In this document: positions 3,508 through 13,666 of the stretch, in pieces | Numbering within the stretch: the first letter of the stretch is position 1 | How the letters are laid out: the number at the start of each line of letters is the position of its first letter | NCBI RefSeq assembly: GCF_046105845.1 | Contig: NZ_CP151004.1 | Length of the DNA stretch: 64,000 nt | Reading direction: 5' to 3' (one strand) | Origin: Escherichia coli | GTDB taxonomy: Bacteria > Pseudomonadota > Gammaproteobacteria > Enterobacterales > Enterobacteriaceae | Made by a program: the position numbers and the translations under genes | Notes under the pieces: generated by a model | Seen by the model: the letters and a program-made list of their open reading frames with translations, nothing else | Databases searched by the model: none | Told to the model about the DNA's origin: nothing

Positions 3508-4880
3508 GACAGGATATCGAAGCGAGCGTTATCGGTGGCCTGCTGATTGGTGGATTAACACCAACCGCCAGCGACGTTCTGGCAACGCTGGAGCCGGAAG
3601 CGTTTTCAATTCCGCTCTACCGGAAAGCCTTCGAGGTTATCCGCAAGCAGGCGAGAAACAGAAACCTAATCGACGCGCTGATGGTTGCAGAGGCGTGCGG
3701 AGAGGAGCATTTCACGTCAATCCTGATGACCAGCAAGAACTGCCCGAGTGCCGCAAACCTGAAGGGATATGCTGGAATGGTCGCGGATAACTATCACCGC
3801 CGTCTGGTGCTGGAAATCATGGACGAAATGCGTGAACCAATTCAGAGCGGAACCATCGACGCATCGAGTCAGGCGATGGACGAGCTGGTAAAGCGTCTTT
3901 CAGCCATCAGAAAGCCACGTGACGAGGTAAAACCTGTACGGTTAGGGGAAATCATCACCGACTACACTGACACGCTTGACAGGCGTCTGAGGAACGGAGA
4001 AGAGTCAGATACCCTGAAGACCGGAATCGAAGAACTTGATGCCATCACCGGAGGGATGAACGCGGAAGACCTGGTGATAATCGCTGCTCGTCCTGGTATG
4101 GGGAAAACCGAGCTGGCGCTGAAGATTGCCGAAGGCGTTGCAAGCCGCGTTATTCCTGGTTCTGACGTCCGGCGCGGGGTATTGATTTTCTCAATGGAAA
4201 TGAGCGCATTGCAGATTGCAGAGCGAAGCATTGCCAACGCCGGGAGGATGTCGGTTAGCGTACTGCGAAATCCTGCATCGATGGATGACGAAGGCTGGGC
4301 GCGTGTTGCTAACGGCATGAGTCAGCTTGCAGATTTGGATGTATGGGTAGTCGATGCCTCGCGGTTATCGGTAGAAGAAATTCGCTCAATCGCAGAGCGG
4401 CACAAACAGGAAAATCCAAACCTGTCACTCATCATGGCGGATTATCTTGGCCTGATTGAGAAGCCGAAAGCAGACCGCAACGACCTCGCAATTGCTCACA
4501 TCTCAGGAAGCCTGAAGGCGATGGCGAAAGACCTGAAAACGCCTGTTATCTCCCTAAGTCAGCTTTCGCGCGATGTTGAGAAGCGACCAAACAAACGCCC
4601 GACAAACGCAGATTTGCGTGATTCAGGAAGCATTGAGCAGGACGCAGACTCAATCATCATGCTCTATCGGGAAGCGGTATATGACGAGAACAGTAGCGCC
4701 GCGCCATTTGCTGAAATCATCGTGACGAAAAACCGTTTTGGCTCACTTGGTACGGTTTACCAGCGGTTCTGTAACGGACACTTTGTTGCATGTGACCAGG
4801 ATGAAGCCAGACAGATTTGCACAGCATCAAATGCACCTGCTGCGCGTGGCAGACGATATGCACAAGGGGCGGACGTATGA
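3504..4880 (+). CDS. Replicative DNA helicase, DnaB family (P22 gene 12-like)
   Basis: 458 aa; Walker A GMGKTE and DnaB C-terminal motifs; overlaps O-like gene stop. Confidence 0.9.
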
Positions 4881-8289: not shown

Positions 8290-8613
8290 ATGAAGATGCC
8301 AGAAAAACATGACCTGTTAGCCGCCATTCTCGCGGCAAAGGAACAAGGCATCGGGGCAATCCTTGCGTTTGCAATGGCGTACCTTCGCGGCAGATATAAT
8401 GGCGGTGCGTTTACAAAAACAGTAATCGACGCAACGATGTGCGCCATTATCGCCTGGTTCATTCGTGACCTTCTCGACTTAGCAGGACTAAGTAGCAATC
8501 TCGCTTATATAACGAGCGTGTTCATCGGCTACATCGGTACTGACTCGATTGGTTCGCTTATCAAACGCTTCGCTGCTAAAAAAGCCGGAGTAGAAGATGG
8601 TGGAAATCAATAA
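8290..8613 (+). CDS. S: Holin S (class I, dual-start M1/M3)
   Basis: 107 aa [20 protein letters not shown]..., recalled as lambda S. Confidence 0.95.
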
Positions 8614-9073
8614 TCAACGTAAGGCGTTCCTCGATATGCTGGCGTGGTCAGAGGGAACAGATAACGGACGACAGAAAACCAGAAATCATGGTTATGACGT
8701 CATTGTTGGCGGAGAGCTATTCACTGATTACTCCGATCACCCTCGCAAACTTGTCACGCTAAATCCAAAACTCAAATCAACAGCAGCCGGGCGCTATCAG
8801 CTTCTTTCCCGTTGGTGGGATGCCTACCGTAAGCAGCTTGGCCTGAAAGACTTCTCTCCCAAAAGCCAGGACGCTGTTGCGCTGCAGCAGATTAAGGAAC
8901 GTGGCGCTTTGCCGATGATTGATCGCGGTGATATTCGTCAGGCTATCGACCGTTGCAGCAATATCTGGGCTTCACTGCCGGGCGCTGGCTATGGCCAGTT
9001 CGAGCATAAGGCTGACAGCCTGATTGCAAAATTCAAAGAAGTTGGCGGAACGGTCAGAGAGATTGAGGTATGA
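8597..9073 (+). CDS. R: Endolysin R (lytic transglycosylase)
   Basis: 158 aa [24 protein letters not shown]..., recalled as lambda R. Confidence 0.95.
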
Positions 9074-9537
9074 GCAGAGTAACCGCGATTATCTCAGCTC
9101 TGGTTATCTGCATCATCGTTTGCCTGTCATGGGCTGTTAATCATTACCGTGATAACGCCATCGCCTACAAAGAACAGCGTGATAAAAAAGTCAGTGAGCT
9201 GAAGCAGGCGACCGCCACCATTACTGACATGCAGCAACGCCAGCGTGCTGCTGATGCACTCGATGCTAAATACACGAAGGAGTTAGCTGATGCGAAAGCT
9301 GAAAATGATGCTCTTCGGCGCAAGCTTGATAATGGTGGCAGGGTGCTCGTCAAAGGAAAATGCCCTGTGCCATCCTCAGCCGAAACCTCCGGCGCCTCCG
9401 GCATGGGCAATGATGCCACCGTCGAACTCTCTCCAGTTGCTGGACGAAACGTTCTCGGTGTCCGGGACGGAATTATCCGCGACCAAACAGCACTGAGAAC
9501 GCTTCAGGAATACATCAGGACGCAATGCCTTCGATGA
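9070..9537 (+). CDS. Rz: Inner-membrane spanin Rz
   Basis: 155 aa, N-terminal TM helix then coiled coil; follows R. Confidence 0.9.
9290..9496 (+). CDS. Rz1: Outer-membrane lipoprotein spanin Rz1, embedded in +1 frame of Rz
   Basis: [21 protein letters not shown] lipobox, proline-rich; wholly inside Rz. Confidence 0.75.
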
Positions 9538-9711
9538 TAGCGATAATTTTACTCATCATCCTTCACATCTGGCTCTGTAGACAGGGTGGTGAACACTTCT
9601 GGAGTGAATCCAGATTAAACATCTCATTGCTGATGCTTGATATTGAGCATCTGGCGCGCGGTAAGGGGCTGCGTTGAGATAAGAGCCAGTCATTACAAAT
9701 ACCAGGATTTA

Positions 9712-9736
9712 GCCTCGCATTTGCGGGGCTTTTTTA
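9712..9736 (+). terminator. Rho-independent terminator after lysis cassette
   Basis: Hairpin GCCTCGCATTTGCGGGGC followed by TTTTTT. Confidence 0.6.
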
Positions 9737-9880
9737 CATCTGCAGTAAACCGCGCATCGCAGCGCGTAACAATCCCGAGTCTTTCAGAAAGCTGAGCCTG
9801 AGAACTGCCGTATATGGTGGCGACCATCTCGGGGCGGCTTTTCTGTGCGAACAGGCTCATCTTTCTAAAAGGTAAACGCT

Positions 9881-10366
9881 ATGAATAACTTTGTTGAAAT
9901 TACCTCAAGAATTGGTCGCATGTACCAAGATTTTCTTATAAGTGGAAAGGGGTCTGGCGACATCATAGAGGAAATTGACAAGCTAAGTGCAGAGCTGAGA
10001 AGGAATGGGTGTGTTAATTCTATCTTTTTTGAAACTTTGCTAAAGCAAGGCTTCATGTTTGACATGATTAATTACAACAAAGTCGCACCCAGTGCTTCGC
10101 AAAAATCATATGTGTACGTTCTGCATGCTGAAGATAGTGGGCTAACAAAAATAGGGTTTAGTCGCAGGGTTAATAAACGAATTTCAGAGATATCTCGCAT
10201 GAGTGGTGGGAAGCTAAATCTAATTGCAAAGATTCCGGCCGATAGAGAGCTTGAAACCAAATTGCACCAAAAATATTACAACTATAGGTCGCACGGGGAG
10301 TGGTTTAGTCTCAATCGTTGTCATTTGAAAGAGCTAAAAGAAATGCCTGGTAACGAACTGAAATAA
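9881..10366 (+). CDS. T5orf172 / GIY-YIG-like domain protein (161 aa), accessory gene
   Basis: C-terminal half has YVYVL...TKIGFS...R...E...EWF pattern typical of T5orf172 (GIY-YIG superfamily); AT-rich; flanked by terminators. Confidence 0.65.
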   Translation: MNNFVEITSRIGRMYQDFLISGKGSGDIIEEIDKLSAELRRNGCVNSIFFETLLKQGFMFDMINYNKVAPSASQKSYVYVLHAEDSGLTKIGFSRRVNKRISEISRMSGGKLNLIAKIPADRELETKLHQKYYNYRSHGEWFSLNRCHLKELKEMPGNELK

Positions 10367-10542
10367 TCCCCGGACTCACTAATTAACGGCAGTACAGCGA
10401 AACGACCCAAGCCAGTAAGTGGGGAAATAACACTGGCAGCCACTGAAAGATGAACCTCCTGCCTTATGGCAAAAAAGATTCTTTGTGGCGGCGGACTGAT
10501 GGAAGGACATCCTAATTTCAGCCAAACATTGAAGGAGTTGTT

Positions 10543-10614
10543 ATGTCAGCAGAAGGTTTCAATAACCCATCAAAATTCCGGGATGAGTGGGATAGCAGCG
10601 TAAAGAGTAAGTGA
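10543..10614 (+). CDS. Possible 23-aa small peptide (MSAEGFNNPSKFRDEWDSSVKSK)
   Basis: ATG preceded by AAGGAG at optimal spacing inside a 350-bp gap; too short to assess otherwise. Confidence 0.2.
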   Translation: MSAEGFNNPSKFRDEWDSSVKSK

Positions 10615-10719
10615 TGCCATCACAAAAGCCATTCCCTACAGAGTGGCTTTGATAATGGCTTATACCCTACACGGGATAACTTAACTGATATCCCTTTTAA
10701 CGGATAAACGGAGCCAACA

Positions 10720-10962
10720 ATGGCAGAGATTATTCCCATGACTGAAGAACAGAAATTCCAGTTAGAGATTTACAAACTGGTCATGAACCAGAACGCAGCC
10801 GCAGAAGAAGCATTTCAGTTCATTGGCACTGACGAACTGAAGCTTGAGCTATTCAAAATTCACTTCCAGTCAGGCGGCGCTAATTCAGATATCACGACCC
10901 GCACTATCGAAGCGGTGCGTAAATCGAAGGAAGCGTTAGACCTGTTCACTACCGGAGCATGA
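10720..10962 (+). CDS. Hypothetical acidic protein (80 aa), accessory gene
   Basis: ATG with GGAG RBS; helical acidic product; followed by an ORF starting 2 nt after its stop. Confidence 0.55.
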   Translation: MAEIIPMTEEQKFQLEIYKLVMNQNAAAEEAFQFIGTDELKLELFKIHFQSGGANSDITTRTIEAVRKSKEALDLFTTGA

Positions 10963-10963
10963 T

Positions 10964-11143
10964 GTGAGCCGCGTAATCAATTTGGGTAAGGAGAAGAAAT
11001 TCCCAATTACTCAAGAGCTATACGAGAGGCTGGAAAGCGTCATCCATGATTACGATGGTGAAATCAGTTTATGCGAGGCGATTGGTACACTCGAATTGCT
11101 GAAGCAGTCACTGATTGAAGGCGCGAAAGAGTCCTTAACCTGA
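10964..11143 (+). CDS. Hypothetical small protein (59 aa, GTG start) coupled to upstream gene
   Basis: GTG ORF found by eye (VSRVINLGKEKKFPITQELYERLESVIHDYDG...), ends before a terminator. Confidence 0.4.
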   Translation: MSRVINLGKEKKFPITQELYERLESVIHDYDGEISLCEAIGTLELLKQSLIEGAKESLT

Positions 11144-11168
11144 AATAACGATTAAGTGAGATGAATAT

Positions 11169-11194
11169 GGCAGCACTCAACATGCTGCCTTTTA
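11169..11194. terminator. Bidirectional rho-independent terminator between convergent small-gene pairs
   Basis: Hairpin GGCAGCACTCAACATGCTGCC with T-run on plus strand and A-run upstream. Confidence 0.55.
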
Positions 11195-11206
11195 TCGTTG
11201 ATTAGT

Positions 11207-11446
11207 TTAACCGCGAGCTTCACGACCGTTTTCGTCTTCAGGCACACGGAAACGCCAGTACTTGTCTGGCTTAACCCAAACGACATCATTGCCACTATCA
11301 ACTCTAAATGCATTTATAACTTTGGTTGAAAGTACTTGGTTGCCATCTGCATTTTCTTTCAGGTGCTGCTCATTACCTGTCTTTATCAGGTAATCGACAA
11401 CATCTTGTTGATAAAGGCATCTGTCAGTTACTAATGCGGACATCAT
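11207..11446 (-). CDS. Hypothetical protein (79 aa), accessory gene
   Basis: ORF 44 bp downstream of the DUF2158 gene on the same strand. Confidence 0.45.
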   Translation of the reverse strand: MMSALVTDRCLYQQDVVDYLIKTGNEQHLKENADGNQVLSTKVINAFRVDSGNDVVWVKPDKYWRFRVPEDENGREARG

Positions 11447-11490
11447 CCACTTTGTTATATCAGCAACTTTTAAATGAGACGCGCTTGGGC

Positions 11491-11703
11491 TTATGGCTTT
11501 GGGTTTGTGTCCGTTAAAGACTCTTCAGCAAAGTGTCCTTTCTCAAGTTTTTTCCCTGCAAACCATTGGCATGTGTATGTTCCAGTAAAAGAACCTCCGT
11601 ATTCGTGGATTTCGTATACAGACATCTCAGGACCGCCTGATTTCAAATATACGGAATCGCCAATTTTAAATAACGCTTTTCTTACAGTTGAAGATTTGCT
11701 CAT
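11491..11703 (-). CDS. DUF2158 (YodC-like) small protein (70 aa)
   Basis: FKIGDSVYLKSGGPEMSV...CQWF pattern typical of YodC/DUF2158; AAGGTG RBS upstream. Confidence 0.6.
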   Translation of the reverse strand: MSKSSTVRKALFKIGDSVYLKSGGPEMSVYEIHEYGGSFTGTYTCQWFAGKKLEKGHFAEESLTDTNPKP

Positions 11704-11729: not shown

Positions 11730-12257
11730 ATGGCACTCACCGACAAGCAAGAGATGTTCTGTCGCGAGTACCTCATCGATTTAAATGCCACGCAAGCGGC
11801 TATTCGGGCGGGGTACAGCGCAAAGACAGCTAACCGTACCGCATCCGAAAACCTGTCAAAACCTGACATCAAGTTAAGAATCTCCGAACTGAAAGCGCAA
11901 CGCAATGATCTTGTTGGTATTAATGCAGAATATGTACTTAACCGCCTTATTGAAATCGACCAGATGGATGTGCTCGACATTCTCCTGCAAAACGGTGAGT
12001 TAAAGCCCATTAAAGACTGGCCTAAGGTATGGCGCACAACGCTATCAGGAATGGATGTCGTGGAGATGGTATCCGCAGATAGTGCCGCACTTCTGAAGAA
12101 AATCAAATGGCCTGATAAGGTCAAAAACCTCGAACTTCTTGGTAAGCATGTTTCCGTTCAGGCATTTAAAGAACAAGCTTCTCACGAGCTAACCGGTAAA
12201 GACGGCGGCGCAATCCAGATTGAAACATCACCGATGAGCACTCTATTCGGAAAATGA
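11730..12257 (+). CDS. Terminase small subunit
   Basis: 175 aa; N-terminal HTH (DKQEMFCREYLIDLNATQAAIRAGYS); directly upstream of large terminase. Confidence 0.85.
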   Translation: MALTDKQEMFCREYLIDLNATQAAIRAGYSAKTANRTASENLSKPDIKLRISELKAQRNDLVGINAEYVLNRLIEIDQMDVLDILLQNGELKPIKDWPKVWRTTLSGMDVVEMVSADSAALLKKIKWPDKVKNLELLGKHVSVQAFKEQASHELTGKDGGAIQIETSPMSTLFGK

Positions 12258-13666
12258 CCTCGATTAATCCTATCTTTGAACCGTTCATTGAGGCGCATCG
12301 CTACAAAGTCGCCAAAGGCGGTCGAGGTAGCGGTAAGTCATGGGCAATTGCGAGGCTGCTTGTTGAAGCGGCGCGCCGGCAGCCTGTGCGCATCCTCTGT
12401 GCTCGTGAACTGCAAAACAGTATCAGCGATTCGGTAATCCGGTTGCTTGAAGACACCATAGAGCGGGAAGGGTATTCGGCTGAGTTTGAAATTCAGCGTT
12501 CCATGATTCGTCATCTCGGAACGAATGCCGAATTCATGTTCTACGGCATCAAAAACAACCCGACAAAGATTAAATCGCTCGAAGGTATTGATATCTGCTG
12601 GGTGGAGGAAGCGGAAGCGGTAACGAAGGAATCGTGGGATATCCTGATACCAACCATCCGTAAGCCGTTCTCTGAAATATGGGTAAGCTTCAACCCGAAA
12701 AACATCCTCGACGATACCTATCAGCGATTCGTCGTAAACCCTCCTGATGATATTTGTCTGCTGACGGTGAACTACACCGACAACCCGCACTTTCCTGAAG
12801 TTCTCCGTCTGGAGATGGAAGAGTGTAAACGCAGAAATCCGACACTGTATCGTCACATCTGGCTTGGTGAGCCAGTAAGCGCAAGTGATATGGCAATCAT
12901 CAAACGTGAATGGCTTGAAGCCGCAACCGATGCGCACAAGAAACTCGGATGGAAAGCGAAAGGCGCTGTTGTCTCTGCGCATGACCCGTCAGATACAGGA
13001 CCAGATGCTAAAGGTTATGCATCGCGTCACGGTTCGGTAGTTAAGCGCATTGCCGAAGGTCTGCTGATGGACATCAACGAGGGTGCTGACTGGGCTACTT
13101 CGCTGGCGATTGAAGACGGCGCTGACCACTACCTGTGGGATGGTGATGGTGTTGGTGCTGGGCTACGCAGACAGACAACGGAAGCGTTCTCCGGCAAGAA
13201 AATCACCGCCACGATGTTCAAGGGCAGCGAATCGCCATTCGATGAAGATGCTCCGTATCAGGCCGGAGCATGGGCTGATGAAGTCGTACAGGGCGACAAC
13301 GTTCGCACTATTGGCGATGTATTCCGCAATAAGCGAGCGCAATTCTATTACGCGCTCGCTGACAGGCTGTATCTGACATATCGGGCGGTTGTTCACGGTG
13401 AGTATGCAGACCCCGACGACATGCTGAGTTTCGACAAAGAAGCGATAGGCGAGAAGATGCTGGAGAAGCTGTTTGCAGAACTGACGCAGATTCAGCGCAA
13501 ATTCAATAACAACGGGAAGCTGGAGCTAATGACTAAGGTCGAAATGAAGCAGAAGCTCGGCATTCCATCTCCTAACCTGGCTGATGCGCTAATGATGTGT
13601 ATGCATTGCCCGGCATTGGTCCGCGAAGAAACTGAAATATACGTTCCCTCATCCTCCGGTTGGTAA
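12254..13666 (+). CDS. Terminase large subunit
   Basis: 470 aa; Walker A GGRGSGKS; C-terminal nuclease domain. Confidence 0.95.
   Translation: MTSINPIFEPFIEAHRYKVAKGGRGSGKSWAIARLLVEAARRQPVRILCARELQNSISDSVIRLLEDTIEREGYSAEFEIQRSMIRHLGTNAEFMFYGIKNNPTKIKSLEGIDICWVEEAEAVTKESWDILIPTIRKPFSEIWVSFNPKNILDDTYQRFVVNPPDDICLLTVNYTDNPHFPEVLRLEMEECKRRNPTLYRHIWLGEPVSASDMAIIKREWLEAATDAHKKLGWKAKGAVVSAHDPSDTGPDAKGYASRHGSVVKRIAEGLLMDINEGADWATSLAIEDGADHYLWDGDGVGAGLRRQTTEAFSGKKITATMFKGSESPFDEDAPYQAGAWADEVVQGDNVRTIGDVFRNKRAQFYYALADRLYLTYRAVVHGEYADPDDMLSFDKEAIGEKMLEKLFAELTQIQRKFNNNGKLELMTKVEMKQKLGIPSPNLADALMMCMHCPALVREETEIYVPSSSGW

Follow-up and report, generated by a model that had tools for sequence, protein, structure and literature searches.

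In a 64,000-nucleotide stretch of Escherichia coli DNA (NCBI RefSeq assembly GCF_046105845.1, contig NZ_CP151004.1; hereafter the window), the late region of a P22-like (Lederbergvirus-type) prophage contains a 353-bp gap (10367-10719) between an accessory T5orf172 gene and the homologue of P22 orf80. Judged by comparison with other genomes, an open reading frame (ORF) of 23 codons within this gap is a genuine protein-coding micro-gene, belonging to an unnamed family, defined here, that is under purifying selection across at least six enterobacterial genera. Taking the evidence together, we think it probable that the gap is a junction for accessory cassettes and that the ORF is a real micro-gene, expressed in the late mRNA and most likely acting in trans.

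A first-pass annotation, made from the letters of the window, had put the gap at about 350 bp and singled out AAGGAG 5 nucleotides (nt) upstream of an ATG as its one convincing translation signal. Measurement of the gap, and the coordinates and sequence of the signal and ORF, agree with that description:

10532-10537, + strand, Shine-Dalgarno (SD) sequence AAGGAG, 5 nt before the ATG at 10543
10543-10614, + strand, 23-codon ORF encoding MSAEGFNNPSKFRDEWDSSVKSK, with its stop codon TGA at 10612-10614

The micro-gene and its relatives

The window holds three instances of AAGGAG and ATG separated by 4-8 nt, where shuffling predicts 2.25; one of the other two is the Rz1 start at 9290. As this is no commoner than chance, the reality of the ORF had to be judged by comparison with other genomes. 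The whole gap recurs at 97-99% identity in 113 of the 5,426 complete E. coli genomes searched by blastn, and some part of it in 2,564. The window type of the micro-gene is likewise present in 113 of the 5,426, with a paralogue or partial match in 223, and the ORF is intact at all 115 places located by blastn. The first-pass annotation would have given up the gap had related prophages failed to conserve it; since the gap is kept whole in these genomes and the peptide is kept across genera, its choice of the SD-preceded ORF as the feature to follow was well made. Searching with the peptide (tblastn) recovered identical 23-residue copies in phage HK544 and in Salmonella phage Emek, as well as divergent homologues, each with a purine-rich SD 4-8 nt upstream. 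The divergent forms, with their lengths in amino acids (aa), are:

23 aa, MATQGFDNPSKFRDEWDKQAEGK, in APC_JM3.2, E212 (tblastn only) and EC.P3
23 aa, MAVEGSDNPVKFREELDKSIPKK, in Proteus Brookers
23 aa, MAAQGFDNPTQFREELDKSIPKE, in Proteus Pm34 and a Lederbergvirus labelled "Salmonella phage MS2 LVA"
23 aa, MATQGFDKPEQFREELDKSIPKE, in Providencia phage PSTNGR2lys
27 aa, variants in Enterobacter and Cronobacter phages
47 aa, variant in Providencia phage PSTCR8lys

The family core reads [QE]GF[DN]NPxKFR[DE]EWD, and residues G5, P9, F12, R13 and D17 are invariant or nearly so among 39-47 aligned sequences. The window peptide fits, ungapped, the broader membership motif [QE]-G-[FS]-x-[NK]-P-x-x-F-R-x-[EQ]-[WL]-D in a protein of 23-47 aa. 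A profile search of 5.8 billion proteins, begun with a 47-aa relative as its first sequence, returned 42 small hypothetical proteins (E from 3e-11 to 7e-5). An exhaustive HMMER search of 1.84 billion representatives gave 29 clusters, each made up either of small proteins or of starts that had been miscalled or fused, and a further 314 relatives were found in IMG/VR. The sole signal for a named family is to Pfam PF10872 (DUF2740), whose profile positions 19-32 are matched by 28 of 47 members of the micro-protein family through the conserved core; however, the window peptide scores 13.2 bits (E=0.075) and the best member reaches E=0.016, against a gathering cut-off of 27 bits, so the peptide is not a member. 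A literature search on DUF2740 returned no papers, and E. coli YdaG, which we had guessed to be a DUF2740 protein, matches UBA-like domains instead.

Substitution patterns point to selection on the peptide. Among 18 distinct DNA versions of the core, the pairwise ratio of nonsynonymous to synonymous differences (pN/pS), an estimate open to pseudo-replication among related copies, is 0.23 in the ORF frame compared with 0.92 and 1.57 in the shifted frames, and synonymous sites are nearly saturated (pS 0.76). Entropy is 1.11 at third codon positions, 0.53 at first and 0.24 at second. The window-type and JM3.2-type paralogues of E. coli are identical at 51 of 72 nt and keep the core peptide, and the nucleotide variants within types are synonymous in four cases out of four, three in the window type (including a first-position change, CGG to AGG) and one in the JM3.2 type. 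We judge the ORF genuine because its homologues carry their own SD, because of these selection statistics and because no broken copies were found. On the comparative data, therefore, 72 nt of a gap that had been described as non-coding encode a protein under protein-level selection.

Residues 1-18 are conserved and the last five vary with context, the conserved motif lying 6 to 29 codons from the stop across the family. The 46-47-aa variants of Providencia and Proteus (loci L018, 1501-1644, and L021, 4001-4141) carry a Lys/Pro-rich C-terminal extension ending in PPPKKP (PPKKP in PSTCR8lys), of which the 23-aa forms have none. Databases also hold fusions of the micro-peptide to DUF2560, through read-through into orf80, or to a P22 gp7-like glycine-rich segment, PF25688 (P0044, 105 aa; P0034, 70 aa); these are probably products of stop-codon loss or artefacts of assembly.

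Neither RefSeq PGAP nor any phage record checked, those of HK544, Emek, APC_JM3.2 and Pm34 included, annotates the 23-codon frame; Emek "orf53" and Pm34 gp6 lie in other frames. Two further + strand frames in the gap were considered and rejected. A 21-codon ORF at 10450-10515, homologous to P22 orf25, has no convincing SD, its frame is broken among homologues by an A-run of variable length (5 to 8 A), and its ATG is GTG in one homologue; it is probably not a gene. A 45-codon ORF at 10466-10603, in the frame of the "orf118" N-terminus of phages ST64T, L and SE1 and of Emek orf53, is probably spurious: the ATG becomes AAG in some homologues, it crosses the same variable A-run, it has no Pfam match, and where it overlaps the 23-codon ORF the coding signal lies in the 23-codon frame. 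The last 80 residues of "orf118" itself (locus L006, 1291-1647, of phage L; locus L007, 1281-1637, of SE1; matching the window from 10466 onward) are an orf80 homologue with orf80's own SD. Its 38-codon 5' extension is open only through a change of GATAATGG to GACAATGG, and the internal orf80 SD and ATG are intact, so that the annotation is probably too long, comprising orf80 and a leader that happens to be read open. P22 orf25, orf118 and Emek orf53 thus overlap segment (a) of the gap, described below (Emek orf53 also the micro-gene cassette), but in other frames and without coding support.

The gap as a mosaic junction

Alignment with P22 and epsilon34, and with many other phage loci, divides the gap into four pieces:

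10386-10511, + strand, segment (a), found at 90-98% identity in 163 phage records
10512-10615, + strand, micro-gene cassette of ~103 bp, holding exactly the SD and the 23-codon ORF
10616-10659, + strand, two-tier hairpin
10651-10719, + strand, orf80 leader, with GATAATGGCTTATACC at 10651-10666 and the SD GGAG at 10710-10713

The orf80 leader includes a small hairpin, GGGATA/TATCCC (10673-10694), followed by TTTT. The ~103-bp cassette is present in Emek, in the HK97-like phage HK544 and in the 113 E. coli genomes, and is missing from P22 and epsilon34, where the site is otherwise collinear; given that these two phages exist without it, the micro-gene appears dispensable. Where segment (a) ends on the right, other phages have a Gp49-family gene, a gene encoding 71 aa, one encoding 57 aa with a terminator behind it, or no insert.

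The P22 orf25-orf80 interval has been described as the site of a moron, pid, with relatives carrying no insert or another one (Cenens et al. 2013, PMC3573128). From its homologous flanks, the gap is the same slot as this orf25/pid hot spot for accessory genes in lambdoid late operons, 3' of the lysis genes and a rha-type or T5orf172 gene and 5' of orf80. The occupants differ. Unlike pid, a minus-strand ORF of 86 aa with its own promoter and terminator, the window cassette lies on the + strand ~190 bp further left, has no promoter and encodes an unrelated 23-aa peptide. The pid insert of P22 (~600 bp) is absent from the window in the alignment, its insertion point corresponding to ~10707. Segment (a) and the hairpin to the right of the cassette would, in the arrangement we propose, form a constant frame that holds now one, now another exchangeable small gene cassette.

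One IMG/VR phage (L046) carries both paralogues 350 bp apart, before and after orf80 (4001-4072 and 4420-4491), and another (L077, 4001-4072) has a chimeric micro-gene, with a window-type N-terminus and a JM3.2-type C-terminus, that joins segment (a) straight to a terminase gene. Together they indicate that the micro-gene itself serves as a homology patch for recombination.

The hairpin begins 1 nt after the micro-gene stop. Its outer stem pairs 10616-10620 with 10655-10659 and its inner stem 10625-10634 with 10641-10650, around a loop at 10635-10640. The exact 16-mer GATAATGGCTTATACC occurs in at least 120 IMG/VR stretches, and 36 distinct versions of the hairpin were collected 5' of it, a search pattern that fixed the 3' outer arm. 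Pairing holds in 93.6% of cells, against 31-53% when the partner is slid. Three stem types share the same column pairing, AAAGCCAYT/AGTGGCTTT, AAGCCCAyc/gGTGGGCTT and GRGRYCAtt/agTGGYCTC, and changes on both sides occur in four pairs (AU/GC, AU/GC, GC/CG/AU and UA/CG), though three stem types represent few independent events. RNAalifold independently recovered the two-tier structure. A small RNA had been among the first suggestions for the gap, with covariation across homologues as a check, and the idea of a small or structured RNA finds partial support: the compensatory pairs are there in the hairpin, and the other candidate RNA, a likeness to Proteo-phage-1 RNA at 10409-10441, stays below threshold. 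G.U pairs fill 68 cells on the + strand and 11 on the minus strand, where pairing falls to 84.3%, so the hairpin is most likely read in the + strand late mRNA. The + strand fold of the gap as a whole is barely better than shuffles (z=-1.84).

An intrinsic terminator was considered for the hairpin and rejected: it lacks a U-tract, with TTATACCC following the stem and TCACTTAC on the minus strand, and the terminator scan does not list it. In many phages it directly follows a post-lysis or post-cassette terminator (...GCTTTTTTATTGCCATYAC...), and in HK97 and HK544 a second copy lies left of segment (a), so that there is one on each side. The hairpin could plausibly serve to process or stabilise the transcript. 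In HK97 (locus L008, 1118-1540) and HK544 (locus L005, 957-1510), only about the first 27 codons of orf80 are kept, joined to an HNH endonuclease region. In Proteus phage Pm34 (L013, 1568-1664, minus strand), the hairpin just after the micro-gene is a minus-strand terminator. It closes an RprA-like match that stays below threshold, at 37 bits where the gathering score is 70, a hint of a small convergent transcript.

A proposed trans-acting peptide and competing explanations

With the exception of Cronobacter ES2, where it sits between Q and the holin gene, the family lies on the coding strand of the lambdoid late region between lysis and terminase genes, in company that changes from type to type. 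The window type is found between segment (a) and the hairpin, with orf80, an HNH gene, IS3 or a Terminase_2 gene downstream. The JM3.2 type directly follows orf80 and ends 4-7 nt before either of two unrelated small-terminase genes, its last codons, GAAGGGAAA, doubling as the terminase-gene SD. In Proteus and Providencia phages the micro-gene comes after the post-lysis terminator, and in Proteus prophages it is upstream of KilA-N and a GpA-type terminase. Terminators of the post-lysis type directly precede or overlap the micro-gene in Proteus, Providencia and Enterobacter phages.

The cassette contains no promoter-like or terminator-like sequence of its own, and the terminator-like sites listed by the scan of the gap are weak; we infer expression through the Q-dependent late transcript. 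It would be transcribed within that + strand mRNA and translated independently. The product is predicted to be a soluble 23-aa peptide, with a short loop (xxQGFDN) and then an amphipathic helix from Pro9 that places F12 and W16 one turn apart; reading the sequence reveals no signal sequence or hydrophobic segment. In an AlphaFold2 model of a 47-aa relative, one helix is predicted to span Pro9 to residue 25, and predicted local distance difference test (pLDDT) scores are 75-84 over the first 20 residues. Independence of neighbouring genes, a conserved N-terminal motif and dispensability together suggest an accessory micro-protein that acts in trans, and the variety of the neighbours makes this likelier than a leader peptide. 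In the least certain step of the scheme, the peptide would bind a partner conserved across Enterobacterales hosts or lambdoid phages.

Several observations weigh against this interpretation. A single nt separates the stop codon from a conserved hairpin; in other lineages the stop is within or beside a hairpin, or precedes a terminase start by 4-7 nt, any of which could point to a role in cis. Copies are often closely related, so the independent lineages behind the selection statistics are modest in number, with ~8-10 peptide types. Neither the peptide nor its family has a match above threshold in Pfam, NCBIfam, PHROGs or the PDB sequences, and a literature string search for the motif found no paper. 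The AlphaFold2 model itself comes from a shallow alignment and has a mean pLDDT of 69.5.

The chief competitor, which we regard as unlikely while taking it seriously, is a cis-acting leader peptide or upstream ORF, an idea already present in the first-pass annotation. Here translation, perhaps with a sequence-specific nascent-peptide effect, would melt or remodel the hairpin at 10616-10659, and would thereby control how the late mRNA downstream (orf80 and the terminase genes included) is processed or translated, or how stable it is. Known arrest peptides, TnaC (24 aa) among them, are similar in size and are conserved at the amino-acid level. The micro-gene shares with TnaC-type leaders its size, an SD-led short ORF in an operon, amino-acid conservation and a stop beside a hairpin. 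To the stop 1 nt before a covarying hairpin may be added the Enterobacter-type variants, which read into the 5' arm of an intrinsic terminator (the only variants in which a terminator overlaps the ORF), the hairpins no more than 5 nt after the stop in Proteus and Providencia phages together with the minus-strand terminator of Pm34, and more than 30 loci in which the ORF ends 4-7 nt before the small-terminase start and GAAGGGAAA supplies the SD. Against a leader, what follows the ORF is inconstant: the same family precedes orf80, HNH, IS3, three kinds of small terminase, KilA-N and LysA, at spacings of 4 to ~390 nt. In P22, epsilon34 and many other phages the hairpin and surrounding leader persist without the ORF. 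The distance from the conserved residues, 4-18, to the stop is not fixed, as the 6-29 codons show, the C-terminal residues are unconserved and the micro-gene moves as an independent cassette, all unlike a TnaC-type leader. The hairpin also leaves free the orf80 SD, which lies ~50 nt further on, and we recognised no alternative-hairpin or Rho-site logic and no alternative pairing of the window hairpin with the ORF.

The remaining explanations fare worse. Decay from a longer ancestral gene, for instance the 46-47-aa form of Proteus and Providencia, would make the ORF an N-terminal stump carried passively in a recombination junction; this would fit the existence of those relatives and the other remnants at the junction (the orf25 and "orf118" frames, the truncated orf80 of HK97 and HK544). 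Yet at least four lineages that differ in their C-termini (SSVKSK, KQAEGK, KSIPKE and KSIPKK), each with its own SD, share a stop at codon 24, purifying selection is strong and none of the 115 copies is broken, which leaves decay very improbable. We give as little credence to a promoter in the gap for orf80 and the orf59c-like gene beyond it, which had also been suggested at the outset. GATAAT at 10651-10656 resembles a -10 hexamer, and internal promoters have been reported in the late operon of phage BTP1 (PMC7067206), whose transcriptome paper does not describe the gap interval. However, no acceptable -35 hexamer lies 16-18 nt 5' of GATAAT, which belongs to the 3' arm region of the covarying hairpin, and a scan of 9500-11500 found no sigma-70-like site where 3.4 were expected by chance. 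Least probable of all, to the point of being barely credible, is a conserved RNA or DNA element, for example part of a small RNA (sRNA) or a protein-binding site, in which the frame would be open by accident. Nearby lie the hairpin and the Proteo-phage-1-like core, and the minus strand of the gap folds better than shuffles (z=-3.1), but changes cluster at third codon positions, with amino acids kept at near-saturated synonymous divergence and no such pattern in the shifted frames. The paralogues likewise hold the core peptide despite their nucleotide divergence, and the cassette matches no Rfam family.

Segment (a), the late region and implications

Segment (a), left of the micro-gene cassette, is probably a non-coding, conserved leader or junction module. 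Its 163 records include P22, BTP1, epsilon34, Sf6, HK620, HK97, HK022, HK544, mEp phages and one Stx2a phage; it follows rha, KilA-N or T5orf172 genes and has at least six left and at least five right junctions. In all, 85 distinct variants were aligned. Rfam, scanned with the gap and with its 3.5-kb surroundings, returned no match that reached gathering score; matches to mir-458, SNORD125 and Yar_1 were set aside as chance. Within the segment lies one recognisable core:

10409-10441, + strand, Proteo-phage-1-like core, with loop AAGCCAGTAAGTG and tail GAAATAACACTGGCAGCC

Proteo-phage-1 RNA (RF03044) is reportedly a candidate sRNA of Weinberg et al. 2017. The core carries the most conserved blocks of RF03044, the hairpin-2 (P2) loop AAGCCnGnnAGUG and the 3' tail AAAnAACAcnGGCAGCC, also written AAGCCGGuuAGUG and AAaAACaCCGGCAGCC, respectively. 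A relaxed consensus pattern matches once in the window and never in 100 shuffles of it. In cmscan the stretch 10392-10441 scores 17.3 bits where the gathering score is 42 (E=1 with 401 nt searched): the P1 stem is deleted, 24 model positions are missing and P2 is cut to CCC/GGG, 3 bp instead of the 5 bp of RF03044. On these sequence features the core is a cut-down relative of Proteo-phage-1 RNA and not a member of the family. In ES18 and S135, whose likeness to segment (a) is confined to its first 47 nt, there is no Proteo-phage-1 match. A pseudoknot joining loop GCCAG to tail CUGGC, which looked compensatory beside the consensus GCCGG/CCGGC, is not claimed, as 43 loci have the mismatched GCCAG/CCGGC.

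Full matches to the RF03044 consensus pattern were retrieved at 58 IMG/VR loci, and five were scanned. Four are bona fide, at 72-81 bits (L231, 2667-2745; L241; L254; L228), while the fifth, L242, lacks P1 as the window does and is below threshold too. Like segment (a), RF03044 occurs in phages of Proteobacteria, often shortly 3' of an intrinsic terminator ending in TTTTTTATTGCC, a placement seen at many of the 58 loci. In the L231 example (81 bits), however, it lies near the start of the late region, following NinG and a 181-aa gene that occupies the Q position, and not after the lysis genes as in the window, which suggests that the motif belongs to the late-operon leader. tRNA genes stand beside it at two of the four bona fide loci (L241 and L254). 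Literature searches on DUF2560 and Proteo-phage-1 gave nothing useful. Separately, an Enterobacter prophage (L020, 1565-1641) has a bona fide IsrJ RNA (RF01393, 60.8 bits against a gathering score of 37) directly 3' of the Q gene, in the late-leader position.

Across the stretch, the nearest sequenced phages are epsilon34, g341c, Sf101, Sf6, HK620 and P22. The late region is laid out as follows:

8290-8613, holin gene
8597-9073, endolysin gene
9070-9537, Rz/Rz1, with the Rz1 start at 9290
9525-9677, + strand, 50-codon ORF overlapping the end of Rz, in the position of epsilon34 gp67
9711-9730, + strand, post-lysis intrinsic terminator AGCCTCGCATTTGCGGGGCTTTTTT, 3' of the 50-codon ORF
9881-10366, + strand, T5orf172/MUG113 (GIY-YIG-like) accessory gene, 161 aa (Pfam PF10544, 39 bits; PF13455, 50 bits)
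10367-10719, the 353-bp gap without RefSeq annotation, between the T5orf172 and DUF2560 genes
10720-10962, + strand, DUF2560 gene (P22 orf80 homologue), 80 aa (Pfam PF10834, 147.7 bits)
10964-11143, orf59c-like gene
11169-11189, + strand, terminator-like site
11207-11446, minus strand, DUF6953 gene, 79 aa
11491-11703, minus strand, DUF2158 gene, 70 aa
11730-12257, Terminase_2 small terminase gene
12254-13666, Terminase_3 large terminase gene

The T5orf172 gene is 98.6% identical to epsilon34 gp68. Epsilon34 gp67 is annotated as similar to Sf6 gene 65, and its 50-codon counterpart in the window has no Pfam match. The DUF6953 and DUF2158 genes, which lie between the orf59c-like gene and the small terminase gene and are preceded by the terminator-like site, look like a second moron of the late region, on the opposite strand.

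The genomic slot was already known as the published P22 moron hot spot; the micro-gene family is defined here. It is possible, although we rather doubt it, that the constant frame is a functional RNA-level system, as opposed to passive homology, in which structured boundary signals delimit, process or stabilise swappable cassettes in the late transcript; such signals could be RNase III-type processing or stabiliser sites. Were that so, the 23-aa peptide, its stop abutting the hairpin, would be a translation-coupled component of the system.

For annotation, three corrections follow: orf118 is probably orf80 with a read-open leader, and orf25 and orf53 have no coding support. A covarying hairpin has been recognised at a classic mosaic junction, and well-studied phages, P22, HK97 and HK022 among them, are found to carry a relative of the orphan Proteo-phage-1 RNA that is accessible to genetics there. 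As a small accessory gene at a phage mosaic junction, the micro-gene is not a new type of system; it leaves the understanding of lambdoid phages unchanged and is of moderate importance. Genes this small are routinely missed, and this one is widespread, selected and unannotated, which makes it a tractable candidate for a late-expressed phage micro-protein whose partner may be conserved across hosts.

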